A stretch of 13,388 bases of DNA. Origin: a virus. The stretch is taken from the IMG/VR virus record IMGVR_UViG_3300045988_103977, one strand, 5' to 3'. This document shows, piece after piece, positions 2,306 through 13,388 of this stretch (position 1 is the first letter of the stretch; the number at the start of each line of letters is the position of its first letter). A program made the translations under genes and the position numbers. The notes under the pieces were generated by a model. That model saw only the letters and a program-made list of their open reading frames with translations. It was not told the origin of the DNA and made no database searches.

Positions 2306-2374
2306 TCATTTCGTAAAATCTGCCCACACCACAATAGCAACAGCAACCAGAAAAGCAATCGTTATCTTAACCAT
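2306..2374 (-). CDS. Possible 22-aa hydrophobic micro-ORF (MVKITIAFLVAVAIVVWADFTK)
   Basis: Not in the ORF track because it is under 60 aa. Its ATG overlaps the portal stop codon (ATGGTTAA). It fills the otherwise non-coding 70-nt gap between the portal and collar genes. It encodes one transmembrane-like segment. Confidence 0.3.
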   Translation of the reverse strand: MVKITIAFLVAVAIVVWADFTK

Positions 2375-3287
2375 CTTCCCTACCTTTCCGCCAGTCAACC
2401 CACACGGCACTACTCAGTTTGTCGCCAAACATAGCATTGATTCTGTTACAACTTTTCTGTAATTCTTCTAACCACAAGTCACATTTACTATGTGTCTCAA
2501 AGTCGTTGCTTTCAGCCTCAGCCGTGATTAACCTTTCTTTCTTGTCTGACCTCACGTTAGGAATACCAACGTCATTACAGAACATTTCTTCCCAACGTCT
2601 GAGTGTGTCCTGTAAATCGGGTGCGATGAAATTTTCTCGCAACTTATTTGCAAACGTTGTCCACGGGTCTGTAGTATTTCCCATAGAATCCCTACGTCTG
2701 AGATTATTACCATAATATACTGCGGTATTTCCGGACATAATCTGGTCAAACGTTTTTTTCAATGCCTCAGCTTGTACTTTTCCATCCACACCAAACATAT
2801 AAGTCAACTTACTGTTAGCAATATTAATCTCACAGGTTTCTGCTGTCAGTGCCATGTTATCCGCATAGTAAGAACATATGTCCATAACACCACACCAGTC
2901 TGGCTGTAATCTGAGAATCACACAATCTTTGTTGATTCTTTTTATGTTAATACCTCTCAACAATGGGTTTGCAATATTAACCTCTGTCGGTTGATAAAAA
3001 ATATTGTAACCCTGTAAACCACAAGCCTGCGGAATCACGCCGTATTTGTCAGTTTCGAAAACACATAGGAATCCCCAACAGTATAACGTATATAAGAAGT
3101 AATTTTTGTCCCACTCTTCCGGTAATTCCCACTTGAATACCGACATACATTTCTGTATAAGATACCTCAGAAAATAGGAATATAACTGAGTGTTCTTGCA
3201 ATGTAATGTCGACGGGGAATAACTGGAAGTGTACAAATTAATCATATCATAACTAACAGGTACATTAGTATCAAAAACCGTCATCAT
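2367..3287 (-). CDS. Portal / upper collar connector (phi29 gp10-like)
   Basis: 306-aa ORF. FLRYLIQKCMSVFKWELPEEW resembles phi29 gp10 YLNYLQSLAYQLFEWENLP. DKKERLITAEAESNDFETHS...CNRINAMFG resembles gp10 EKKERMVTDEVSSNDEQ...CEKINELYG. Both phi29 sequences are recalled from memory. AAGGGGTGA lies upstream of two adjacent ATGs (3287 or 3284). Confidence 0.8.
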   Translation of the reverse strand: MMTVFDTNVPVSYDMINLYTSSYSPSTLHCKNTQLYSYFLRYLIQKCMSVFKWELPEEWDKNYFLYTLYCWGFLCVFETDKYGVIPQACGLQGYNIFYQPTEVNIANPLLRGINIKRINKDCVILRLQPDWCGVMDICSYYADNMALTAETCEINIANSKLTYMFGVDGKVQAEALKKTFDQIMSGNTAVYYGNNLRRRDSMGNTTDPWTTFANKLRENFIAPDLQDTLRRWEEMFCNDVGIPNVRSDKKERLITAEAESNDFETHSKCDLWLEELQKSCNRINAMFGDKLSSAVWVDWRKGREDG

Positions 3288-3288
3288 A

Positions 3289-3948
3289 TCACCCCTTTAA
3301 GAAATAATCGAGCCACTGTCTTGTGTATTCAACTCTTCGTGGCTGTTCAACAACTGCCGGACGTAAGTAATTTGCGGCAAAAGCATAGGTCAATTTTTCC
3401 AAGTCATAGTTGAGCTGATTAAAAGCCCACTGACGGAAATCACATGGATATTTCGTGGTCTTATACCACTGAGGTTCAATCCCTCTGTGTGCTTCACCAA
3501 CACTCTCTTGATACTCAGCATAGATTACACCAAGCTGTTTGTTTCCGTCATACCAGTCAGAGTGACCCCCATACAGAACGTCAAGAACTTTGTAGAGGTC
3601 GGATGCGGGTGTCCACTGTACCAGTCCATGTCCTGCGCCTGCTGATGTAGTACCACCACCAACTTCAATAAGACCCGGATTCAGTGTACTCTCACCTTGC
3701 ATATTTCCAAGGAGTGCCGCAACGCTATTAACATTCCATCCCAATTTCTGATAGAAGTAATCCCATATGATTGTGGCGTTGCTCTTCATGTCGGCATCGT
3801 TAAGATATCCTGCTGATGTATCAGTAACTACAGTTTTCCATTCCCCTGCGGGTGTGATAGGTGGTACTATTCCGCCACCACCTTGCTGTTTTCCGAGAAT
3901 GTAGAATATTAGAGCTAATCCATTACCCTCATTGTAATAACTACGCAT
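3289..3948 (-). CDS. Lysozyme-like peptidoglycan hydrolase (phage tail lysozyme type), probably virion-associated
   Basis: I place the start at ATG 3948 (MRSYYNEG...), which overlaps the tail-knob stop by 8 nt. The track start at 4008 lies deep inside the upstream gene. The motif AALLGNMQGESTLNPGLIEVGGG...GHGLVQWTP matches the signature of phage tail lysozymes (GN.q.ES..np followed by G.GL.QWT). The N-terminus has a short hydrophobic stretch (GLALIFYILG) followed by GGGG and a Pro-rich linker. Confidence 0.6.
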   Translation of the reverse strand: MRSYYNEGNGLALIFYILGKQQGGGGIVPPITPAGEWKTVVTDTSAGYLNDADMKSNATIIWDYFYQKLGWNVNSVAALLGNMQGESTLNPGLIEVGGGTTSAGAGHGLVQWTPASDLYKVLDVLYGGHSDWYDGNKQLGVIYAEYQESVGEAHRGIEPQWYKTTKYPCDFRQWAFNQLNYDLEKLTYAFAANYLRPAVVEQPRRVEYTRQWLDYFLKG

Positions 3949-5341
3949 AATACACCCCACTTTCCAGAAAATTCTTAACCTCATCAATTTCAGCTTCATA
4001 TGCCCCACTTATAGGTGTGCTACCATTCTCAACCTCATAATAACCAACCCCAAGTGCTGAGAATTTACCGTTTTTGCAATAAGGTCTACCATTATCCGCC
4101 CTGTCCTCATCAACTAATAACATACAGTCAATATAACAATACACATCAGAAGTCAATCCGATAGTTGACCCTTGTCCACCTTTTGTAGATACTTCCGACG
4201 AACCTACAGCCATGACACTATCTGCAACTCCCTTTGCAAAGCCGCCAATATCGAGCTTAAATAACGAACCTAATGCGTTACTTACACCCGTTGATACGTT
4301 TGAATAATTGGTTTTTATGTCACTTGTTGCAATGGAAACACCAACATTAGAGTACATGATACCAAGTAGCTCATTTCCACCACCAGTATTTTTAACTAAT
4401 AGACGGCATACCGCATGACCTGTACGCGGGTCTATATCTGCAAATATGTTAATACTCTCCCCATCTCTTATTTTACCACTGTCAACAGTAAGGCAACCAA
4501 AAGGCGGAATATATACTCTGATATATCTATATGGTTGACAGTTAAGATAATTACCACGTTCTAACTGTGGATGTGATGTAGGAGTGACAGAGGTTGCTTT
4601 TGTTTTCCACAAATCATCATCCAATTTATATAATGTCAGTCCTGTTACATCCCACCAGCCGATAGAAATACCCGACATTTCTGTGCCGCCAAGTGTGAAT
4701 GGAAACCATGTTACTGATGTAATATACTGAGCCGGATTTACTGCTATCTGTATCAGATTGTCAGATATTCCTGAGATTCCCTCACCAGTCATCCACTTTA
4801 TATTGCTGAATATTGCACTTGCAAGTTTCTTAAAGTTTGGGGGATTCATTGCATAATAGTTGCAAAGTCCCTGTTTGTTCACAACACCTACTACATAAGA
4901 CCCTGCCACATCAAAACCCTGTTCAATCTGCCATAGAGGTTCCCCAGTTACAGCTTGCCTGTTAACCTGCGGCTTTTTTGGATAAAGAGCGTCAGCAATA
5001 CCACCATCAAAAGAAGTAGAAGACCTTACCACATAGTAGTTATAGTCTTTAATAGTATCTTTATATGTCGCAAGAACATCAACCCGAAGAGAACAAGTCC
5101 ACATATTATCTTCATTTTTCCAGTCCGTAATCCAATACCACCGTGAAAACGCTTCAATATATGCCATGTTATAGATTGACGGATTAAAAGTTTCCGCACT
5201 GTTAGCAATCGTAATAACAGGAGTCAGCACCCCTGTTCCCTCTTTAACGACACAGTTCAAGGTTCGTCCTGCTTCACCCTCAGGTACATACATACTGTTT
5301 TTTCGTTTTGCAACCTTGTATAATTTAACCTCAAAACTCAT
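3941..5341 (-). CDS. Tail knob / distal tube protein (phi29 gp9-like)
   Basis: 466-aa ORF with AAGGGGA 7 nt upstream of the ATG. In the N-terminal third, YNMAYIEAFSRWYWITDW...CSLRVDVLATY resembles phi29 gp9 YNASYIMFQ...NKWFYAFVTE...FEIDVLQTW (from memory). Its position directly after the capsid gene matches phi29. Confidence 0.6.
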   Translation of the reverse strand: MSFEVKLYKVAKRKNSMYVPEGEAGRTLNCVVKEGTGVLTPVITIANSAETFNPSIYNMAYIEAFSRWYWITDWKNEDNMWTCSLRVDVLATYKDTIKDYNYYVVRSSTSFDGGIADALYPKKPQVNRQAVTGEPLWQIEQGFDVAGSYVVGVVNKQGLCNYYAMNPPNFKKLASAIFSNIKWMTGEGISGISDNLIQIAVNPAQYITSVTWFPFTLGGTEMSGISIGWWDVTGLTLYKLDDDLWKTKATSVTPTSHPQLERGNYLNCQPYRYIRVYIPPFGCLTVDSGKIRDGESINIFADIDPRTGHAVCRLLVKNTGGGNELLGIMYSNVGVSIATSDIKTNYSNVSTGVSNALGSLFKLDIGGFAKGVADSVMAVGSSEVSTKGGQGSTIGLTSDVYCYIDCMLLVDEDRADNGRPYCKNGKFSALGVGYYEVENGSTPISGAYEAEIDEVKNFLESGVYYA

Positions 5342-5356
5342 AACATTTCCCCTTAA

Positions 5357-5376
5357 AATGTTTCACGTGAAACATT
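5357..5376. promoter_or_regulatory. Perfect 20-bp palindrome AATGTTTCACGTGAAACATT (operator-like site 1)
   Basis: Self-complementary over 5357..5376. The 14-bp core GTTTCACGTGAAAC is at 5360..5373. It abuts and partly overlaps the minus-strand TATAAT at 5379..5374, so it covers the predicted transcription start. Confidence 0.55.
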
Positions 5377-5401
5377 ATAATAACGTCCCACGTGAAACCA
5401 A
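5374..5401 (-). promoter_or_regulatory. Predicted sigma-A type promoter for the tail/portal operon
   Basis: The minus strand reads TTGGTT (5401..5396), a 16-nt spacer, then TATAAT (5379..5374). It lies in the 64-bp gap between the capsid gene and the tail-knob gene. Confidence 0.5.
5385..5398. promoter_or_regulatory. Degenerate copy of the palindrome (GTCCCACGTGAAAC, 12/14 match; site 2)
   Basis: It shares CACGTGAAAC with the core. Its centre lies 25 bp from the centre of site 1. It overlaps the spacer and -35 of the predicted promoter. Confidence 0.45.
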
Positions 5402-5405
5402 AATA

Positions 5406-6602
5406 TCAATCTAACAGGAAAACAACCGCATTTTCTGTGAAGTCATTCCAGTACCTATCGTTAAAGTGCCACCAAACGTTCATGTATTCGCCCCTTGCAT
5501 TGTAAGGAGTAGTAGCAGTTCTTGCCCCATAGGTTGTGATTCCTGCCGCCTCTTCGTCCATAAGAATACCGAAAATGTTTGATGTAGCTGTTCCAGTTCC
5601 ATCTTCTGCTATAGAGCCATCTTCACCGATATATCGTGCTTTAACATTAATTCCCATTGGTGTTTTAATGGACTGCCAGAAATTAACGCCCTCGTAGTCC
5701 ATCATCTTGAGGTACTGTTCGTTAAACACACTGGAAAATACAGAACTTTCAACGTTGTTCATTTCTGGCGTGTAGAGATATAATCTCTGATTCTGAACAG
5801 GGGTGTGCCGCATGACATTGTGACCTGTAATATTGACATGATACTGTAATGACCTTTCTGTTAAAAATCCGGAAATCGTTTTAATTCTGGAAAATGCCCA
5901 CTTATAGAACGGCACGAAATTTTCTGGTTTCTTAACGGTAGCACTGTCAAGTGTAAGCCCTGTCACGTCGTTATACTCAGTGACAAGATGAATAACGTTG
6001 GATGTATCACCTTTAACTTTTCCACCAATTAAGTTGCAAATAGTTGCCCTCGCGGTATTCTCGTGGCACTGTTCAATCATGTCCATAGTGTTCTGGACAA
6101 GCATCGTGTAAAATCTCTCAAACTCTTCTTCATTCTGCAAAGCGATATTCAACTGGTCACGGAAAATAGTGTAGTGCTTACTGTATACACACTGTCCATA
6201 AAAATTGGTCTGTAAAATGTCTGGCTTGCTTACAATGTCAGCATCAATACTCTCACCATCGGTTAAGTCATAAGAAACATTTTGCTCCCAATCTTTATCC
6301 CCGATGTTAATTTTTCGGACATGGTTTCCCCATTTCATGTTATCCACAAAAAGTCCTGCAAACTTACGATTGTATGGACGAATGGAAAAAATAGTTCTTG
6401 AAATAACCTGTGATATAGCATTAAGTAATGCATCTGGTGCAATACCTAATGCCACGTTAGCTACAGTCACAAAATGCGAACCAGATATAGCAGTTATGGC
6501 ATCTACCCCAGTAGCTTGCTTAACAATAGAATTAAGTGTAGCGATAGAGTTAAATGAACTTACATTTGGTTTACCTGCATCAATATAACCGTTAGTTCCC
6601 AT
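5406..6602 (-). CDS. Major capsid protein (phi29 gp8-like, HK97 fold expected)
   Basis: 398-aa ORF. The C-terminal [24 protein letters not shown] resembles phi29 gp8 [37 protein letters not shown] resembles VLVDKDWFMVY. Both phi29 sequences are from memory. The gene follows a scaffold-like gene, as in phi29. Confidence 0.8.
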   Translation of the reverse strand: [398 protein letters not shown]

Positions 6603-6608
6603 ACTCCA

Positions 6609-7172
6609 TTACCCCCTTGTCATAATTTCTGGTGGATTAATAATAGCCGCTGTCATTTCATCAACAGTCGGAACATGATTCCCGCCAGATAAATCCTGTG
6701 CAATCCCATTCGCCTGTACCGCTCTAGTCAGTGCATTGATGGAATTGGTCAACTGGTCATTGTTTGGGAACTGTCGGTTCACAATGCTCTGAGTCGGCAT
6801 CCCACTGTAATTTCCCTGCTGAAAAGCATAGTCTACCATCTGACTCTGTGCCTGTCCTGCCATTGCCGGATTCGTAAGCTGTCCCTGTAATAATTCCGGT
6901 GGTGTGACCATCTGCTGTGTCATTGCTCCCACTGGAACTGGCGGCATTCCCATGTTTGGCTGTGGTGCTGGTGCTGGTGCTGGTGCTGGTGCTGGTGCTG
7001 GTGCTGGTGCTGGTGATGGTGCTGGTGCTGGTGCTGGTGCTGGTGCTGGTGCTGGTGCTGGTGCTGGTGCTGGCTGATTATAAGCGACTGTAGTCTGGCT
7101 GTTCACAAGAGACAGAATGTCGGCTTTTGTAAAGCCTGCCCCGGCTAATGCGATAATGTCATTCATTGTCAT
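6609..7172 (-). CDS. Putative scaffolding protein with a 40-residue (X-Pro)20 tract
   Basis: 187-aa ORF with AAAGGAG 9 nt upstream of the ATG. It lies immediately upstream of the capsid gene, the phi29 gp7 position. It has a short helical N-terminus, then QP(AP)9SP(AP)8QP, then a Gln/Met/Pro-rich region and a C-terminal helical part. The function is positional inference. Confidence 0.45.
   Translation of the reverse strand: MTMNDIIALAGAGFTKADILSLVNSQTTVAYNQPAPAPAPAPAPAPAPAPAPSPAPAPAPAPAPAPAPAPQPNMGMPPVPVGAMTQQMVTPPELLQGQLTNPAMAGQAQSQMVDYAFQQGNYSGMPTQSIVNRQFPNNDQLTNSINALTRAVQANGIAQDLSGGNHVPTVDEMTAAIINPPEIMTRG
6957..7076. repeat. Hexanucleotide tandem repeat (TGGTGC)n, 20 units, coding
   Basis: There are 17 perfect TGGTGC units plus one TGGTGA (7011..7016) across 6963..7070. 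These are flanked by TGGCTG variants at 6957 and 7071. The repeat encodes the Pro-Ala tract on the minus strand. Confidence 0.95.
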
Positions 7173-7506: not shown

Positions 7507-7691
7507 CCCTCTTCCATTCGGTCAAGAAGTTTTTGCAATACCAGTGTGTTGTTATTAAGTGCGTCCTGTAGTTTGTTTACCTCTTCTTTGTGCGACTGCA
7601 TCTCCTGATACCACAAATAGAACGTCACAGCAAGGCAAGCTACTGGCACTCCCAGATTTGCGAAAATAGTACTGATTGTGTTTAAGTCCAT
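7503..7691 (-). CDS. Holin-like protein (BhlA/UviB-type architecture)
   Basis: 62-aa ORF with AGGTGA 5 nt upstream of the ATG. It has one N-terminal transmembrane segment (ISTIFANLGVPVACLAVTFYLW) and a charged coiled-coil tail (HKEEVNKLQDALNNNTLVLQKLLDRMEEG). Size and layout match the BhlA/UviB holin-like family. Confidence 0.5.
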   Translation of the reverse strand: MDLNTISTIFANLGVPVACLAVTFYLWYQEMQSHKEEVNKLQDALNNNTLVLQKLLDRMEEG

Positions 7692-7735
7692 TCGTTCACC
7701 TACTTTCTTTCGGAACTCCGTGCAATCGTGTCATA

Positions 7736-7826
7736 TGTGAGGGAAGTCCGAGTCGTGAGTTGGACGAACTCATGCACTACAGTTCCGCTGTATGTCCTTG
7801 TGCTACGGACTTTTGTTTCCCTCACA
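7736..7826 (-). ncRNA. Candidate structured RNA (three-way junction): pRNA-like element or stabilising 5' leader
   Basis: The outer helix pairs 7736..7745 with 7817..7826 (10 perfect bp) and 7746..7750 with 7806..7810 (5 bp), separated by a 6-nt bulge at 7811..7816. The first inner hairpin pairs 7756..7761 with 7767..7772 and has its loop at 7762..7766. The second pairs 7778..7782 with 7788..7792 and has its loop at 7783..7787. The first loop (minus-strand CGUCC) is complementary to GGAC in the junction strand (7795..7798). The structure lies in a 146-bp non-coding gap, and a promoter is positioned to start transcription at the base of the helix. Confidence 0.4.
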
Positions 7827-7831
7827 CATAC

Positions 7832-7860
7832 AGTGTACTACATGTGAAAATAACTGTCAA
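7832..7860 (-). promoter_or_regulatory. Predicted strong promoter embedded in the 3' end of the ATPase gene
   Basis: The minus strand reads TTGACA (7860..7855), a 17-nt spacer, then TACACT (7837..7832), preceded by the AT-rich AAATTTCTTC. The predicted start at about 7825-7829 coincides with the first pairs of the 7736..7826 helix. Confidence 0.55.
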
Positions 7861-8902
7861 GAAGAAATTTCGATTCTATGTCCTCAAAATAGATTTTATC
7901 CTCAAGGTAGTTGATGTTCCATATCCATGCATAGTACCGTTTAAAAGCCTTAATGTTCTTTTCATTGATTCCGGTAAAGGTTCGGATAGGGACTCCCTGT
8001 TTGTGTTTACAGACGTAAAGCATATCTGAGGACTTGTGTTCGTATATCGCGATTTCTTCAAAGAATACCAGTGGGAGATATTCTGAGAGGTTTTGGGTTC
8101 TTACGTCTGAGTAATCCGTGTCGTAGAACTCATTTCCTAGAGCCATCTGAGAAAAGCCGCTGTGCTCACCTACCATTTTATAGAGTGCTGTTTCTTTCTT
8201 GGCTTGTGAGATAGGACTGTTACACAGGTTATAGAGTGCTATTCCCCTTGACTTGAGAAAAGCTGTTTCCTGCCGCTTCCGTGACATATCCGCAACTTTA
8301 CGGATGAGTCCCAGACTGGCAAACAGTTCACAACCCACATTATCAGAGTTTGAAAAACATAACACCTGTAACGGTGGAAGTCCTTTTAGTTCTCTATTAC
8401 GGTTCATAGTTTCATAACCATGCAAGAATGATTCTGCAATGCCGCGTGGAACCCTGTCCCCTTTTTGTGGGATGAATTCGTCCCAAAACCACAATGATAC
8501 ATCCTCAGCAGAGAATCCACGCAAGTTAGATAATGTTGTGATAGCAGAGCCATATCCTACGGGTTTTCCGACTGGTGTCATCTTTCCATCTTCATCTTCC
8601 TCCGTGTGATAATATCCTGCAATATTATTAATGGAATAAGGCTGTATGTTATATCCTAAATCACTATTAATAGGTTTAAATGGGGACAGTTCTTTATTTT
8701 TGATTTTGTCAAGCTGTGTCTGTTTCGTTCGGGAATACATAAAGGTCTTGTGTTCTTCCAAGGCATATTTCAAACCACCATATGTCTTTCCTGTACCTCT
8801 GCCGCCCCAGATAAAATTAAAAGGATAGCCGTTGTCGACTATCCTCTTAATGTTCAAATATCCTTGTGGTGTGTACAGTTCGGATTTTTTCTTACTTGAC
8901 AT
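7838..8902 (-). CDS. DNA encapsidation ATPase (phi29 gp16-like)
   Basis: I place the start at ATG 8902 (MSSKKKSELYTPQGYL...), giving 354 aa. The 46 upstream codons of the track ORF overlap the preceding gene. ELYTPQGYL...NFIWGGRGTGKTY resembles phi29 gp16 LFYNPQKML...NFVIGARGIGKSY (Walker A). LWFWDEFIPQK resembles IVFDEFIREK (Walker B). METMNRNRE...VLCFSNS resembles MDTVFRNRE...CICLSNA. The phi29 sequences are from memory. Confidence 0.9.
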   Translation of the reverse strand: MSSKKKSELYTPQGYLNIKRIVDNGYPFNFIWGGRGTGKTYGGLKYALEEHKTFMYSRTKQTQLDKIKNKELSPFKPINSDLGYNIQPYSINNIAGYYHTEEDEDGKMTPVGKPVGYGSAITTLSNLRGFSAEDVSLWFWDEFIPQKGDRVPRGIAESFLHGYETMNRNRELKGLPPLQVLCFSNSDNVGCELFASLGLIRKVADMSRKRQETAFLKSRGIALYNLCNSPISQAKKETALYKMVGEHSGFSQMALGNEFYDTDYSDVRTQNLSEYLPLVFFEEIAIYEHKSSDMLYVCKHKQGVPIRTFTGINEKNIKAFKRYYAWIWNINYLEDKIYFEDIESKFLLDSYFHM

Positions 8903-9245
8903 ATTTTGCCGTGATATATTCACGGTTGTTCTTGCTACGTTCTGACACAATTTCGATACATACGTCTGCGACTTTGCACTTATTAGCAAGTTCCATAATT
9001 CTGTCAAAGGTACGAATAAATGCCGCTGATGTCGTTGCAAATACCTGACCCTCAGTTGTTAATACAGTAAGGATTCTTACCATTTCGCTGTATGCATTGA
9101 ACTCTTCATAGAGGCAATATTTGTCAACGTGTACCTGCTGACCTTTAAGGTCTGCTCCGCGTAAACGGTCTGGCGACTCGAACATGTCATAAGATAAATC
9201 CATTGTCCACTCATTGTCCATAATATTTGTTTTTACAATATCCAT
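8892..9245 (-). CDS. Early protein, possibly a phi29 p5-like ssDNA-binding protein
   Basis: 117-aa ORF with AAGGAG 8 nt upstream of the ATG. ILTVLTTEGQVFATTSAAFIRTF...CIEIVSERSKNNREYITAKY resembles recalled phi29 p5 TVTTIFAADGSLYSAISKTV...KVKVVQGTSSKGNVFFSLQL. The functional call rests on that weak, memory-based similarity. Confidence 0.4.
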   Translation of the reverse strand: MDIVKTNIMDNEWTMDLSYDMFESPDRLRGADLKGQQVHVDKYCLYEEFNAYSEMVRILTVLTTEGQVFATTSAAFIRTFDRIMELANKCKVADVCIEIVSERSKNNREYITAKYVK

Positions 9246-9271: not shown

Positions 9272-9285
9272 GTTTCACGTGAAAC
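9272..9285. promoter_or_regulatory. Palindrome GTTTCACGTGAAAC (site 3)
   Basis: Perfect 14-bp palindrome. It shares the 17-mer TGTTTCACGTGAAACGT with site 4. It is preceded by a tandem TGTTTCA half-repeat (9264..9277). It lies 27 nt upstream of the 9245 start codon. Confidence 0.5.
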
Positions 9286-9320
9286 GTAACACTTATATAT
9301 GAGGAGTTGCGTTTTTTAAT

Positions 9321-9334
9321 GTTTCACGTGAAAC
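9321..9334. promoter_or_regulatory. Palindrome GTTTCACGTGAAAC (site 4)
   Basis: Perfect 14-bp palindrome, 49 bp centre to centre from site 3. A TATATAAG -10-like element (minus strand, 9299..9292) lies between the two sites. I found no good -35 for it. Confidence 0.5.
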
Positions 9335-9396
9335 GTTGTATAGTTAGTGATTAGAATAGCGAATCGAAAGTTTTTAATATGTTATTGGTGTAGTGT

Positions 9397-9705
9397 TTAG
9401 TCCACTACTGGTTTCATTTCTTCAAGTGGTTCTGTTGACACACCACCAGATGCTTCGAGTTCCGCGATAGCGGCTCTGATGAAGTTTTCATCTGACAGGT
9501 GGTAAGTACAGAATTTGGTTTCTGTAGTGATGTTTTCTACAGTTGCACCAGACGGGATAAGTACCTCATCTTTCTTCATGTCATTATACATCTTGGTCTG
9601 TGTCCATGATGTACCAACAAATTCTCTTGTTGCTGTTTTGATTTCCTCAGAACCCTGTTCCTTATAGTACAGAGTCATTACTGTAGTTGTGATAGTTCTA
9701 ACCAA
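9397..9705 (-). CDS. Early protein, possibly a phi29 p6-like dsDNA-binding (histone-like) protein
   Basis: The track ORF starts at GTG 9714, but that GTG overlaps the GGAG of the ribosome-binding site AAAGGAG. The in-frame TTG at 9705 lies 8 nt downstream of it, giving 102 aa. RTITTTV...REFVGT...YHLSDENFIRAAIAE plus the acidic tail resembles recalled phi29 p6 REITKTTV...ETFVGN...YELPVEKFLEVATV plus its acidic tail. It is the first gene behind a strong early-type promoter. Confidence 0.4.
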   Translation of the reverse strand: MVRTITTTVMTLYYKEQGSEEIKTATREFVGTSWTQTKMYNDMKKDEVLIPSGATVENITTETKFCTYHLSDENFIRAAIAELEASGGVSTEPLEEMKPVVD

Positions 9706-9743
9706 CTTTCTCACTCCTTTCTTATTATAATGTCGTTTCGGAT

Positions 9744-9758
9744 GTACTTCCTAAGTAC
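9744..9758. promoter_or_regulatory. Palindrome GTACTT-CCT-AAGTAC at the predicted +1 of the leftward early promoter
   Basis: Two 6-bp arms with a 3-nt centre. It begins about 7 nt downstream of the minus-strand -10. It could be an operator or the 5'-terminal hairpin of the transcript. It is flanked by two direct TATTATAAT copies (9723..9731 and 9761..9769). Confidence 0.4.
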
Positions 9759-9764
9759 GATATT

Positions 9765-9793
9765 ATAATAGCATAATATTTTTTGGTTTTCAA
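9765..9793 (-). promoter_or_regulatory. Leftward early promoter
   Basis: The minus strand reads TTGAAA (9793..9788), a 17-nt spacer, then TGC-TATTAT (extended -10, hexamer 9770..9765). Confidence 0.6.
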
Positions 9794-9814
9794 TAATTTT
9801 TTTCAAATTGGTTG

Positions 9815-9843
9815 TTGACATTCAACAGGAAGTGCGCTATTAT
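9815..9843 (+). promoter_or_regulatory. Rightward early promoter for the replication operon
   Basis: TTGACA (9815..9820), a 17-nt spacer, then TATTAT (9838..9843). It lies about 43 nt upstream of the ATG at 9886. Confidence 0.7.
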
Positions 9844-9885
9844 ATACTTGTAACAAATATAAGGTTTCAAGAAAAGGAGTTTAAA

Positions 9886-10128
9886 ATGACTACTGAAAAA
9901 GCAAAATCTGTGTTAGAAAAATTAAAAAAAGGAAATTTTGAGAGAGGTATTGTAATTGTTAATGATAACTCATTTAACATCAATGTTATGCCGGGTATTA
10001 CTCGCTTACATATCAGTGAAAATTGGCTAGAATTAATTGATATTAGAACAAAGATAACATTGACAACGGTTGACATTTCTACAATATCTTCCATCTGGGG
10101 ATATATGGACGGCGAACTTATTTGCTAA
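9886..10128 (+). CDS. Hypothetical early protein (80 aa)
   Basis: ATG at 9886 with AAAGGAG 7 nt upstream. The track start at 9808 would lie upstream of the promoter. I recognise no motif in the product. Confidence 0.6.
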   Translation: MTTEKAKSVLEKLKKGNFERGIVIVNDNSFNINVMPGITRLHISENWLELIDIRTKITLTTVDISTISSIWGYMDGELIC

Positions 10129-10143
10129 TAAAGGAGATTAACA

Positions 10144-10227
10144 ATGAGTCTGCTGATATTAGGTTTTATCATGGGTTATATGGTAGGAATGATAATGTTT
10201 GGTCTGGATGAGAGGAAAAAGAAATGA
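10144..10227 (+). CDS. 27-aa membrane micro-protein (MSLLILGFIMGYMVGMIMFGLDERKKK)
   Basis: Not in the ORF track. AAAGGAG lies 7 nt upstream of the ATG. It has a single hydrophobic helix and a basic tail. Its stop overlaps the next start (ATGA). Confidence 0.5.
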   Translation: MSLLILGFIMGYMVGMIMFGLDERKKK

Positions 10228-10397
10228 AAACTGTGAGTATCAATTTTGACGAGCGGATATTGAGCAACCTTGATTCCCTAGCTGAAAAGTTAGGGACTTC
10301 AAGGAGTAACACGTTAATGATCGTGTTGAGGGAGAACGTTATACTCTCCCTCTTAAATAAGGAGGACGGTAAATATGGCAAAGAAATCTGCAAGTAG
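10224..10397 (+). CDS. Ribbon-helix-helix (CopG/Arc/MetJ-type) DNA-binding protein, 57 aa
   Basis: Not in the ORF track. MKTVSINFDERILSNLDSLAEKLGTSRSNTLMIVLRE has the pattern of a beta-strand, helix A, a G-x-S/T turn and helix B. It is coupled to the upstream ORF by ATGA and overlaps the next gene by 23 nt. Confidence 0.65.
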   Translation: MKTVSINFDERILSNLDSLAEKLGTSRSNTLMIVLRENVILSLLNKEDGKYGKEICK

Positions 10398-10881
10398 GGT
10401 ACAGCTTGAAGTCAAGTACAGAGAGTTAAGAAAGAAACTGGTGGGACAGATTGAGAAAGTATCTAAAAGTGCTTACGCGAAAGATGTAGAAAAGGCTAAA
10501 AGGTATATTGAGCCTAGAATACCAAGCGCATCTAATATCAGTTCAAAGAGAAATTTAGAAATGGCTATCCGTGAAGCGGAAGCCGCATTGAAGAATAAAA
10601 CGTTTGTAATCTCAGAGCGTAAACGTATGAGAAAAAAGGCTATTGAGAGGTTAAATAAAACATTCGGAACTGACTACTTCAAGAACTATAGACAAGCAAC
10701 TAAATTCTATGATTTTATGGAATTGGTTCGAACTCATTCCGAAGATATCATCTATGATAGTGATAAAGCGGCAGAGATTTTTCTTGAACATAGTAAAGAA
10801 CCATTACAAAAAATTTTAAAGAGATATAGAGAGTATGAAGCAGAGTTTAGTAAAAGAAGTCCAAAAAGAGTATCTTTCTGA
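10375..10881 (+). CDS. Putative terminal protein (replication primer), 168 aa
   Basis: AAGGAGG lies 7 nt upstream of the ATG. The gene is immediately upstream of, and overlaps, the protein-primed polymerase gene, as phi29 gene 3 precedes gene 2. The product is very basic. Its N-terminus MAKKSASRV...YRELRKK resembles phi29 TP MARSPRIRI...YARLVKN. The IIYDSDK...QKILKRYREY...F-end resembles phi29 EEFDSEG...YKILSYLEQY...F-end (from memory). Confidence 0.5.
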   Translation: MAKKSASRVQLEVKYRELRKKLVGQIEKVSKSAYAKDVEKAKRYIEPRIPSASNISSKRNLEMAIREAEAALKNKTFVISERKRMRKKAIERLNKTFGTDYFKNYRQATKFYDFMELVRTHSEDIIYDSDKAAEIFLEHSKEPLQKILKRYREYEAEFSKRSPKRVSF

Positions 10882-13103: not shown

Positions 13104-13388
13104 AGTTAGTTAGGATTAACTTTGTTCCCTAGTAGTTAATCAGGACTAACTCATGGCGGAGCGACCGGAGGGAGCGGAGCGGTAAGCGACCGAGCGGAGG
13201 GAGCCACGGGCGACCGAGCGGAGCGAGGGAGCCACATTTCGAACATATGTTTGGTTTATGTGTTCTTCGACGGCGGACAAATCGGGCGGTTTGTGTTTGT
13301 CGGCGGCGGACAGACGGAGAGAACTGTGTCCGTCACTGGCGGACAAATTGGGGAAAATGTCCGTGACACACGGATATGTATATACTTT
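13104..13388. repeat. Right inverted terminal repeat (ITR-R), 285 bp
   Basis: Exact reverse complement of 1..285. The window ends ...GTATATACTTT-3', so the bottom strand also starts 5'-AAAGTA. Confidence 0.95.

Follow-up and report, generated by a model that had tools for sequence, protein, structure and literature searches.

The closest known system to the RNA described here is the packaging RNA (pRNA) of the phi29 family (Rfam RF00044), which includes phi29, PZA, M2/Nf, B103, SF5, GA-1 and the DLc1 group. This pRNA has long been seen as peculiar to phi29 and related Bacillus phages, and its restriction to Bacillus phages as well as its origin are standing questions (PMC5066667, PMC11476376). 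A preliminary description of the present locus had limited the established pRNAs to Bacillus phages, in agreement with the literature (PMC11476376, PMC12670572). For the Streptococcus phage Cp-1 a pRNA was proposed in 1996 (Martin et al., as cited in PMC6266182). A covariance model of the Bacillus pRNAs finds no Cp-1 pRNA (PMC6266182), and in the literature we found no report that confirms it. The RNA of the window, by which we mean the whole 13,388-nt stretch of viral DNA that was analysed (IMG/VR record IMGVR_UViG_3300045988_103977), is comparable to the Cp-1 proposal in that a pRNA is predicted outside the Bacillus phages from sequence alone, but the window family is backed by covariation over about 100 genomes.

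Structured RNAs of other kinds also have to be considered. Three-way-junction aptamers, for example the purine riboswitch, and the loop/bulge contacts of hammerheads likewise bring together two arms with interacting loops, and they are the model for an intramolecular explanation of the window RNA. In RNAs of the purine-riboswitch and hammerhead type the arms that dock are separated by long junction strands, and the ligand-binding or catalytic core is conserved, whereas the window RNA has a linker of 1-3 nt and unconserved junction bases. The 5' stabilisers of mRNAs in Bacillota and their phages, such as the aprE and ermC leaders and the SP82 stabiliser, are simple stem-loops, and we know of none with conserved loops, a junction or a covarying tertiary pair. 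The window structure resembles them in that it starts at the predicted mRNA 5' end or a few nucleotides from it, before the first ribosome binding site (RBS).

The genome and its packaging motor

The window is bounded by terminal inverted repeats of 285 bp and represents the complete, linear, protein-primed genome of a small gut phage with relationship to phi29. In a profile search PF05352, PF05894, PF25622 and PF03175 were all matched by encoded proteins, and the proteins relevant to head assembly and packaging are the following:

2367..3287, minus strand: phi29-type connector (portal), PF05352, E = 1e-19
5406..6602, minus strand: phi29-type major capsid protein, PF25622, E = 2e-16
7689..7700, minus strand: RBS (GGUGA) and ATG of the first head-operon gene, which encodes a 62-aa single-pass membrane protein ("holin-like")
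7838..8902, minus strand: gp16-type packaging ATPase, 354 aa from the ATG at 8902, PF05894

The ATPase is similar to phi29 gp16 (BLASTP E = 5e-11), and its profile matches PDB 7jqq_A over residues 88-321, with the C-terminal domain included. The connector is similar to phi29 gp10 (BLASTP E = 2e-13). With its connector, capsid protein and gp16 ATPase homologous to those of phi29, the motor is, as predicted from these similarities, of the phi29 type. The N-terminal basic RKR segment of the phi29 connector is reported to bind pRNA (Xiao 2005, Atz 2007); inspection of the N-terminus of the window connector, MMTVFDTNVPVSYDMINLYTSSYSPSTLHC, for an RKR motif or a basic cluster revealed neither. A megablast search of the genome against GenBank phages gave a single unannotated faecal contig as the sole match.

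Promoter and limits of the transcript

The 146-bp gap reported between the ATPase gene and the first head-operon gene was found as described, extending from the ATPase stop codon TAG (7840-7838) to the next ATG (7691). Also the near-consensus minus-strand promoter that had been seen at its upstream end was confirmed, with TTGACA at 7860-7855, a 17-nt spacer and TACACT at 7837-7832:

7855..7860, minus strand: -35 hexamer TTGACA, within the final ATPase codons (Leu-Asp-Ser)
7832..7837, minus strand: -10 hexamer TACACT, directly 3' of the ATPase stop codon
7823..7827, minus strand: predicted transcription start, 5-9 nt past the -10 hexamer and at the first pairs of the closing helix

Of 45 distinct upstream sequences, 44 keep TTGAC, and this conservation extends to the third bases of the CTT and GAC codons, at which synonymous changes are possible; the -10 hexamer of the relatives is TACAAT, TATAAT or TATACT, frequently with an upstream TG. 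The closing helix starts 6-9 nt past the -10 hexamer in every clade, and the promoter geometry would place the transcription start at the base of this helix. A terminator scan of the window detected no intrinsic terminator after the RNA, which agrees with the earlier statement. As the RNA ends 15-45 nt upstream of the RBS, it is formally a 5' UTR.

Fold of the RNA

The RNA had been proposed to be a three-way junction with paired ends. Its 93-nt core folds with -33.7 kcal/mol (z = -3.8), and none of 200 shuffled sequences was as stable; for the whole 169 nt the z-score is -3.1. Covariance models built for the family match positions 7732-7829 with 106 bits (R1) and 94 bits (R2). The elements of the fold are listed in the 5' to 3' direction of the RNA, after the core as a whole:

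7733..7829, minus strand: structured RNA core of about 91-97 nt, from folding and covariance-model matches
7817..7829, minus strand: closing helix P1 (equivalent of the A helix), 5' strand AUGUGUGAGGGAA; double changes at all 8 modelled P1 pairs, in the model-fitted alignment
7811..7816, minus strand: 5'-side bulge ACAAAA between P1 and P2, with ACA conserved within the window clade
7806..7810, minus strand: helix P2, 5' strand GUCCG, pairing with 7750-7746; 100% paired, with 4 of 5 pairs covarying
7800..7803, minus strand: helix C, 5' strand GCAC, forming 4 bp with 7777-7774; 100% paired
7793..7799, minus strand: CE-type 5'-side bulge AAGGACA, in which GGAC (7797-7794) is one half of a loop-loop pair
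7778..7792, minus strand: hairpin E, UACAG-CGGAA-CUGUA, with all 5 stem pairs covarying
7774..7777, minus strand: helix C, 3' strand GUGC, partner of GCAC
7756..7772, minus strand: hairpin D, UGAGUU-CGUCC-AACUCA, whose loop supplies GUCC (7765-7762), the partner of GGAC in the loop-loop pair
7751..7755, minus strand: junction strand J(D/P2), CGACU, 4-6 nt in all clades
7746..7750, minus strand: helix P2, 3' strand CGGAC, partner of GUCCG
7733..7745, minus strand: closing helix P1, 3' strand UUCCCUCACAUAU, pairing with 7829-7817, one pair being G.U

The terminal helix had been described as 15 bp, made of 10 perfect pairs, a 6-nt bulge and 5 further pairs; the bulge and the 5-bp inner helix are present, but the outer part consists of 13 bp and not of 10. 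The pairing of the 5' segment, at the predicted start of the RNA, with the 3' segment is conserved and covaries in the relatives. The three-way junction with two hairpins and 5-nt loops also stands, its arms being the C-E arm and hairpin D. The complementarity of the loop CGUCC to GGAC holds as GGAC:GUCC, and it covaries in the relatives. The location given for GGAC, a single strand in the junction, had to be corrected: a 4-bp helix, here named C, had been overlooked, and because of it GGAC lies in the 5'-side internal bulge between helix C and the CGGAA hairpin. Across the relatives helix C occurs as GCAC/GUGC, GUUC/GAAC, GUAC/GUAC or GGGC/GCCC. In the small class the E loop CGGAA (7787-7783) hardly varies, and at the position of the P1/P2 bulge the large clade has CA or CAA.

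Conservation and covariation

About 100 related phage contigs share the RNA. About 95 relatives were examined and nearly all carry it; the covariance models detected a single copy per genome and no off-target matches. Distant loci were found by means of these models, as scanning with minimum-free-energy windows picked over-long windows. In the relatives the helices are conserved and every helix covaries. When a structure-blind MAFFT alignment of 29 relatives was analysed with RNAalifold, four of the helices were recovered and 14 of 21 pairs covaried. Among 44 distinct sequences, 94% of the cells pair, compared with 31-43% if the partners are slid by 1-3 columns; double changes occur at 25 of 32 pairs, and none of 500 shuffles matched the observed covariation score. 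The MAFFT alignment places the closing helices of different sub-clades in different registers. The P1 statistics were therefore taken from a model-fitted alignment, and such an alignment tends to favour the structure. In helices P2, C, E and D, G.U pairs were counted 32 times and A.C pairs 0 times, a count that left out the misaligned P1 and the optional fifth pseudoknot pair; this large excess of G.U over A.C indicates that the pairing occurs in RNA of the window minus strand.

Although their sequences vary, Watson-Crick complementarity between the C-E bulge and the D loop is kept in each clade. At least 11 different complementary bulge/loop pairs occur across the relatives, including GGAC/GUCC, GAAC/GUUC, AACCAA/UUGGUU, GCACA/UGUGC and UUGCAU/AUGCAA, and the GC pairs of the alignment columns 37-73, 38-72 and 39-71 are replaced by AU, CG or UA in 12-14 sequences each. 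The GAAC/GUUC combination is that of L023. The bulge/loop pair was not part of the covariance model. Covariation alone fits an intramolecular pseudoknot equally well as an intermolecular pairing. The linker from C to D is 1-3 nt long in all clades, which would argue against a side-by-side arrangement of C and D and would favour pairing between molecules.

As modelled, the RNA family is confined to the lineage of the window phage. Among the cultured but weakly related Amedibacillus phages AD70P2/P3 (OP172638/9), AD70P3 scores no more than 13 bits, a weak form of the RNA, and R2 gave nothing credible in Cp-1, the Clostridium phages CI461P1 and CI644P6 or the Eggerthella phage LE1-1. An Rfam scan of the window reported no family at the gathering score, and no curated riboswitch or ribozyme family of Rfam matches the RNA. 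A search with the Rfam pRNA model had been suggested for the locus: RF00044, which scores phi29 itself at 145 bits, matched neither the window nor any of 8 distant relatives with E <= 10. Conversely, R1 and R2 did not match the phi29 genome at the pRNA locus.

Several other candidates were discarded in the course of these searches. A 14.9-bit covariance-model match at phi29 5034-5095 is regarded as noise, as are miRNA-like Rfam matches at E <= 10, and a tRNA/tmRNA scan found none of these RNAs. Hammerhead and other ribozymes were rejected for lack of conservation in the junction strands and of any model match. A possible coding ORF at 7700-7825 (41 aa, GTG start) was rejected since single-base indels among close relatives break any reading frame.

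Comparison with the phi29 packaging RNA

The setting and the topology of the window RNA correspond to those of phi29 pRNA in many respects. Both belong to protein-primed podoviruses with a gp10-type connector and a gp16-type ATPase, and both have a strong sigma-A promoter. In the Rfam structure of pRNA an A helix with a 5' bulge is followed by the C helix, a 5'-side bulge, the E hairpin, a short linker and the D hairpin with a loop of 5-7 nt, before the chain returns to A, and the same order of elements is found in the window RNA. In both families, 3-6 nt of the bulge are complementary to the D loop, and the two segments covary between phages as the sequence drifts.

The differences are also clear. 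The window family is 75-97 nt long, whereas domain I of phi29 pRNA has 117-120 nt; helices C and D have 4-6 bp compared with 9 and 6 bp in phi29; and the junction strands measure 2, 1-2 and 5 nt compared with 1, 3 and 0 nt, with J(D/P2) taking the place of the 0-nt strand of phi29. The covariance models of the two families fail to find each other in both directions. The window RNA is located 5' of the head operon, whereas phi29 pRNA is encoded at the left genome end. Unlike phi29 pRNA, it lacks a terminator in the window, it is accompanied in some clades by a complementary segment termed anti-E (see below), the connector of the phage has no N-terminal RKR, and the evidence for it comes entirely from sequence.

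Genomic position and the anti-E segment

The RNA lies directly 5' of the head operon, usually following the ATPase gene. In MT835998 it still precedes the head operon, with the ATPase gene 8 kb away on the opposite strand, so that its position follows the 5' start of this operon and not the ATPase gene. A large clade (L057-L098) has its own arrangement, consisting of a dedicated promoter, the RNA, a second hairpin with a conserved loop and a covarying stem, and then a U-run; separate operator palindromes stand between the RNA with its U-run and the late genes. Terminator-like hairpin, operator palindromes and 60-130 nt hence separate the RNA from the operon. A simple terminator scan misses the hairpin of the L062 clade because its loop has 11 nt. 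By analogy, this stand-alone layout of the larger relatives resembles the two-domain pRNA of phi29, which likewise carries a second hairpin domain on the 3' side.

A further element of the leader lies between the RNA and the RBS:

7711..7717, minus strand: anti-E segment AGUUCCG, just 5' of the RBS; shuffle p = 0.016 in the window

Anti-E is complementary to CGGAACU (7787-7781), that is, to the E loop and two stem bases. At least 6 clades have equivalents that covary with the E stem (p = 0.000-0.046 each), and about half of the clades lack one. An alternative pairing to the RBS itself was looked for across the clades and was not found. The E loop CGGAA is conserved also in L024, L045 and L102, which have no anti-E, so the loop must have another partner. 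Anti-E points to an added, or an alternative, cis role of the RNA, which comes close to the 5'-terminal mRNA structure that the preliminary description had named as its conservative alternative.

Function of the RNA

The preliminary description regarded the locus as a pRNA-like candidate, a view that is partly supported. The structure, covariation, closing helix, junction, complementary loops and phi29-type motor all agree with it; RF00044 does not match. We think that the element is probably a packaging RNA of a new, minimal class, made here as the 5'-terminal leader of the head-operon transcript. It would then be the functional counterpart of domain I of phi29 pRNA, and probably a diverged homologue. 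This reading is based on the covariation of every helix and of the loop pair, the match in topology to phi29, the homologous motor and the presence of the RNA in about 95 relatives; in addition, the RNA looks like a stand-alone gene in the large clade and the linker from C to D is short. Against it stand the mismatch of RF00044 and of R1/R2, the missing terminator, the gene order in MT835998, the connector without RKR, the junction strands unlike those of phi29, and the anti-E complementarity, which is not foreseen by a pRNA model.

Packaging function, ring formation and a discrete RNA species are what we infer from these data. In such a mechanism, the RNA would be made in the window as the 5' end of the head-operon transcript and could act while still attached, or after release by an endonuclease that cleaves immediately 3' of the closing helix. 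The bulge of one RNA would pair with the D loop of the next, resulting in a ring on the portal vertex of the prohead. The closing helix would point outward and dock the gp16-type ATPase, and the nearly invariant E loop would contact the prohead. In the precursor, anti-E may mask the E loop or may couple the state of the RNA to translation of the first gene.

The main alternative to a packaging RNA is a 5' leader of the head operon that acts only in cis and has a compact fold with an intramolecular pseudoknot of bulge and loop. Such a leader would shield the mRNA from 5'-exonuclease or set translation of the first gene via E loop and anti-E, and it would have no packaging role. We regard this as unlikely. 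The helix begins at the predicted 5' end and no terminator precedes the RBS, as a leader would require, but a hairpin suffices for a 5' stabiliser, and the junction and three conserved single-stranded elements would be superfluous. The RNA always stands before the head operon, even with the ATPase gene elsewhere; in the large clade, however, it is set apart from the operon by the terminator-like hairpin, the palindromes and 60-130 nt. A regulatory function is suggested by anti-E, which lies beside the RBS and in 6 clades or more changes together with the E stem, but the CGGAA loop is kept also in clades without anti-E (L024, L045 and L102), and no alternative pairing touches the RBS itself. 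Pairing within and between molecules leaves the same covariation, but a C/D linker of 1-3 nt would be ill suited to side-by-side docking, and it would have to be by coincidence that a phage with a phi29-type motor carries an RNA that corresponds to pRNA in topology point by point.

Very unlikely, in our view, is a trans-acting phage small RNA with a different task, such as a protein decoy or sponge, an anti-defence RNA or an antisense regulator of late mRNA acting through E-loop/anti-E sites. The strong and constitutive-looking promoter, the nearly invariant E-loop sequence and the stand-alone unit of the large clade would all suit such an RNA, and the E loop is complementary to a site in the mRNA leader; but no target was found beyond this own leader, no known RNA family matches, and the self-complementary bulge/loop pair and the pRNA-like topology would be left unexplained. 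Explanations without a functional RNA are effectively refuted, whether the region is taken as a DNA element (cruciform or inverted-repeat operator), as an inverted repeat that arose by chance or as the small ORF at 7700-7825. It is true that the 13-bp inverted repeat is also present in the DNA and that the 41-aa GTG ORF overlaps the region, but the G.U versus A.C count of 32 to 0 shows strand-specific RNA pairing, four nested helices and a pseudoknot covary, indels among close relatives disrupt the reading frames, and the true operator-like palindrome of this phage group has a different sequence.

Significance of a possible second class of packaging RNA

The interpretation as packaging RNA suggests that RNA-containing packaging motors extend beyond the Bacillus phages. 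It is possible, though on the doubtful side, that packaging with a pRNA is a general and perhaps ancestral mode of gp16-type motors, that a large lineage of 12-15-kb gut podoviruses employs a minimal pRNA of 75-97 nt missed by current models, and that in genomes like the window this RNA is also the head-operon leader, coupled by E loop and anti-E, and thus motor part and cis regulator at once.

If the packaging reading is correct, the family would be a second pRNA class, unrelated in sequence to that of phi29 and much smaller, and it would define a minimal pRNA architecture. Present pRNA searches (RF00044, or Infernal seeded on phi29, GA1 and DLc1) would then miss whole lineages. The roughly 100 gut-phage genomes with homologous connector and ATPase would make the questions of pRNA origin and restriction testable. 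Should the element instead be a cis-acting leader, it would still be a new, widespread and strongly covarying class of structured RNA in gut phages. As a packaging RNA, the family would moreover offer natural variation in ring-forming loop pairs as well as compact, self-assembling three-way-junction scaffolds for RNA nanotechnology.

The RNA locus and its fold

The candidate packaging RNA (7829..7733, minus strand) lies between the packaging ATPase gene and the head operon. The gap of 146 bp in which it had been placed is real, as the ATPase ORF stops on the minus strand at TAG 7840-7838 and the following gene begins with ATG at 7691. Also the proposed minus-strand promoter, TTGACA (7860-7855), a 17-nt spacer and TACACT (7837-7832), holds, scoring 10/12 in a promoter scan. 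TTGAC is kept in 44 of 45 distinct upstream sequences, also at the synonymous positions of the Leu and Asp codons that it overlaps, the -10 hexamer of relatives frequently has a TG extension, and the closing helix starts 6-9 nt past this hexamer in every clade. The 93-nt core has a folding energy of -33.7 kcal/mol (z = -3.8) and consists of the following elements, all on the minus strand:

7829-7817 with 7745-7733: closing helix P1, 13 bp, one G.U
between P1 and P2: 6-nt bulge ACAAAA
7810-7806 with 7750-7746: helix P2, GUCCG with CGGAC
7803-7800 with 7777-7774: helix C, 4 bp, GCAC with GUGC
after the 5' strand of C, before hairpin E: 5'-side bulge AAGGACA
hairpin E: UACAG-CGGAA-CUGUA
between the C-E arm and hairpin D: linker, 1 nt in the window
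hairpin D: UGAGUU-CGUCC-AACUCA
after hairpin D: junction strand CGACU, 5 nt

This fold amends the preliminary description in part. The 6-nt bulge and the 5 bp behind it were correct, but the adjoining helix is not a perfect one of 10 bp, having 13 bp with one G.U instead, and the inventory of two hairpins in the junction had missed helix C. Likewise, GGAC (7797-7794) is indeed complementary to GUCC (7765-7762), but it sits in the internal bulge of the C-E arm and not in the junction. As had been stated, no terminator follows the RNA in the window. The folded RNA ends about 35 nt ahead of the ribosome-binding site of a gene for a 62-aa membrane protein, after which scaffold, capsid and connector genes follow.

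Conservation and covariation

Two ATPase scans of IMG/VR yielded loci with ATPase identities from 95% to 41%, 29 of them close and 65 more distant; faecal GenBank contigs push this range to about 29%, and the same RNA architecture was seen in all these relatives. From a structure-blind MAFFT alignment, RNAalifold recovered P2, C, E and D, and covariation was seen in 14 of 21 pairs; when the full structure was imposed on this alignment, 93% of cells paired, versus 33-42% with slid partners. The covariance model R1, built from the window clade only, detected the RNA in distant clades at the homologous place and nowhere else. The resulting alignment of 44 distinct sequences, from which the P1 statistics come and which is biased towards the nested helices because it was fitted to them, has double changes in 25 of 32 pairs with 94% of cells pairing, and none of 500 shuffles reached the observed covariation score. 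The helices are thus kept and covary in relatives, as the packaging-RNA proposal had predicted. In P2, C, E and D, 32 G.U stand against 0 A.C, which places the pairing in the minus-strand RNA of the window and not in DNA; together with the helix covariation, this effectively excludes a DNA-level, coding or chance origin. Since many loci are related and were taken from a single large gut dataset, sequence counts overstate independent events; a count of the different loop-pair sequences, at least 11, is more robust.

These loop pairs connect the 5'-side bulge with the D loop. Their columns covary though they are outside the covariance model: 37-73, 38-72 and 39-71 switch from GC to AU, CG or UA, in 12-14 sequences each.

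Complementary bulge / D-loop sequences in the window and in related phage loci (L numbers)
Window: GGAC / GUCC
L023: GAAC / GUUC
L045 group: AACCAA / UUGGUU
L099, L100: GCACA / UGUGC
L107-109: AGUCA / UGACU
L102-104: UGCAC / GUGCA
L106: UUGCAU / AUGCAA
L105: CAGC / GCUG
L113: AAUCA / UGAUU
L115: GCUA / UAGC
Large clade: UGUAC / GUACA; UGUGC / GCACA; GGGUAA / UUACCC

Bacillus pRNAs are reported to vary in this way in their right-hand and left-hand loops (PMC12670572).

A further complementarity, not expected under the pRNA model, was found in at least six clades, in which the stretch from the RNA to the ribosome-binding site holds a 6-9-nt segment (anti-E) that is complementary to the E loop plus neighbouring stem bases and covaries with them across clades (shuffle p = 0.000-0.046 per locus):

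Window, 7717-7711, minus: AGUUCCG, pairing with CGGAACU
L107 (equivalent sites in L107-109): UCCGGCU
L100 and L106: UCCGGG
L113: GCUUCCGGC
L115: UCCGUCCGU
L004, L099: equivalent sites

This suggests that the RNA may be coupled in cis to the downstream message. Anti-E is missing in about half of the clades, and the CGGAA loop is still kept there.

Comparison with phi29 pRNA

In the consensus of the Rfam pRNA family RF00044, phi29 pRNA has an A helix with a 3-nt 5' bulge, a C helix, a 9-nt 5'-side bulge and the E hairpin, followed by a UUU linker and a D hairpin with a 5-nt loop that leads directly into A. Every element occurs in the same order and with the same asymmetry in the window-family RNA, which differs in size (75-97 nt versus about 118 nt), in its helices C and D of only 4-6 bp and in its junction strands (2, 1-2 and 5 nt versus 1, 3 and 0 nt). 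At E <= 10, RF00044, which scores 145 bits on phi29, gave no match to the window or to eight distant relatives; phi29 pRNA in turn was missed by R1 and by the broader covariance model R2. The proposed likeness to phi29 pRNA therefore stands for the architecture and fails for the Rfam model: the RNA is built like pRNA, is classed outside RF00044, and probably works like pRNA. The E loops of phi29 (L110 261-266, UUGAGU) and of the large clade L057-L098 (UUGGGAG, A6 columns 42-46) are faintly alike, a resemblance that may hint at common descent.

According to a 2024 review, pRNA is unique to phi29 and related Bacillus phages (PMC11476376), and a structure-based search of 2025 found further pRNAs in Bacillus phages only (PMC12670572). 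For Cp-1, a pRNA was proposed in 1996 that a Bacillus model does not detect (PMC6266182); R2 found no pRNA in Cp-1 either. Literature searches, whose coverage is incomplete and leaves an earlier description possible, turned up no pRNA described for gut, Guelinviridae or metagenomic phi29-like phages.

Genome and motor proteins

Perfect 285-bp terminal inverted repeats (1-285 and 13104-13388) identify the window as a complete linear genome, which presumably is protein-primed; within them, short repeats occur (37-64 with 103-130; 162-179 with 186-203). The genome encodes a protein-primed family-B polymerase (PF03175), a phi29-type major capsid protein (PF25622), a phi29-type connector (2367-3287, PF05352) and a Podovirus_Gp16 ATPase (PF05894). 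In direct BLASTP, the connector matches phi29 gp10 (E = 2e-13) and the ATPase phi29 gp16 (E = 5e-11), and the ATPase-family profile aligns with the phi29 motor structure 7jqq_A across residues 88-321, C-terminal domain included. All protein partners of phi29 pRNA are thus represented by homologues. In phi29, an RKR segment of the connector N-terminus binds pRNA; a basic RKR cluster looked for at the connector N-terminus here is absent. The ATPase ORF (7838-9040, TTG start, 400 aa) is over-extended, as homologues start at Met47 (ATG 8902, 354 aa), a start that overlaps the end of an SSB-like ORF (8892-9245). The scaffold-like protein (6609-7172) includes a long low-complexity (Pro-Ala)n run.

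Packaging RNA or leader

In the large clade, the core is about 115 nt long, its C arm bearing an additional hairpin, and a second hairpin ("domain II") follows about 150-190 nt past the ATPase stop (e.g. L062 2683-2712). Domain II has a covarying stem and a conserved loop, GUGUCA(A/C)AGC, and a U-run comes next, recalling domain II and terminator of phi29 pRNA; operator-like palindromes (GTTTCACGTGAAAC) separate the hairpin from the late genes. The large-clade RNA appears to form a gene of its own with two domains, like phi29 pRNA.

Promoter, fold, covarying bulge/loop complementarity and homologous motor proteins are the observed basis on which we consider a minimal packaging RNA the likely identity of this element. 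Pairing of bulge and D loop between molecules would arrange the RNAs as a ring on the portal vertex. The ATPase would be docked by the closing helix and the E loop may contact the prohead, the window RNA being either freed from the operon transcript or active while still attached. The main rival, a leader that acts only in cis and forms an intramolecular pseudoknot, is in keeping with the absence of a terminator in the window, with the operon linkage and with the anti-E segment, but does not account for the conserved E loop of clades that lack anti-E, for the stand-alone unit of the large clade or for a topology that coincides with that of pRNA; we regard it as rather unlikely. The C-to-D linker of 1-3 nt in all clades weakly disfavours side-by-side docking of the arms within one molecule. 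That the RNA acts in trans in some role other than packaging seems improbable to us.

Layouts in other phages

In MT835998.1 (L115), the RNA lies at 1040-1130 (E = 1e-13; E-values are rough, as calibration was shortened), before the head operon and roughly 1 kb from the end of the genome, while the ATPase gene (9375-10439) has moved into the early block of the opposite strand, at a distance of 8 kb. The conserved neighbour of the RNA is therefore the head operon and not the ATPase gene. UUUUUGU follows the closing helix in this phage. The cultured Amedibacillus phage AD70P3 (L111, OP172639.1, Guelinviridae) has a weak 65-nt version after the packaging gene (3387-3474), with a TTGACA promoter, the E loop CCGAA, a possible UAUCC/GGAUA pairing and an R2 score of only 13 bits; this phage might offer a starting point for experiments.

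A palindrome, (A)TGTTTCACGTGAAACA, is repeated in two intergenic gaps of the window (5354-5380 and 5386-5397; 9273-9284 and 9314-9340). It is probably an operator for a phage transcription regulator of middle or late promoters, and it is also found directly downstream of the RNA in several relatives (L011-L019, L020, L022, L023) and, in two copies about 190-260 nt past the ATPase, in the L062 clade.
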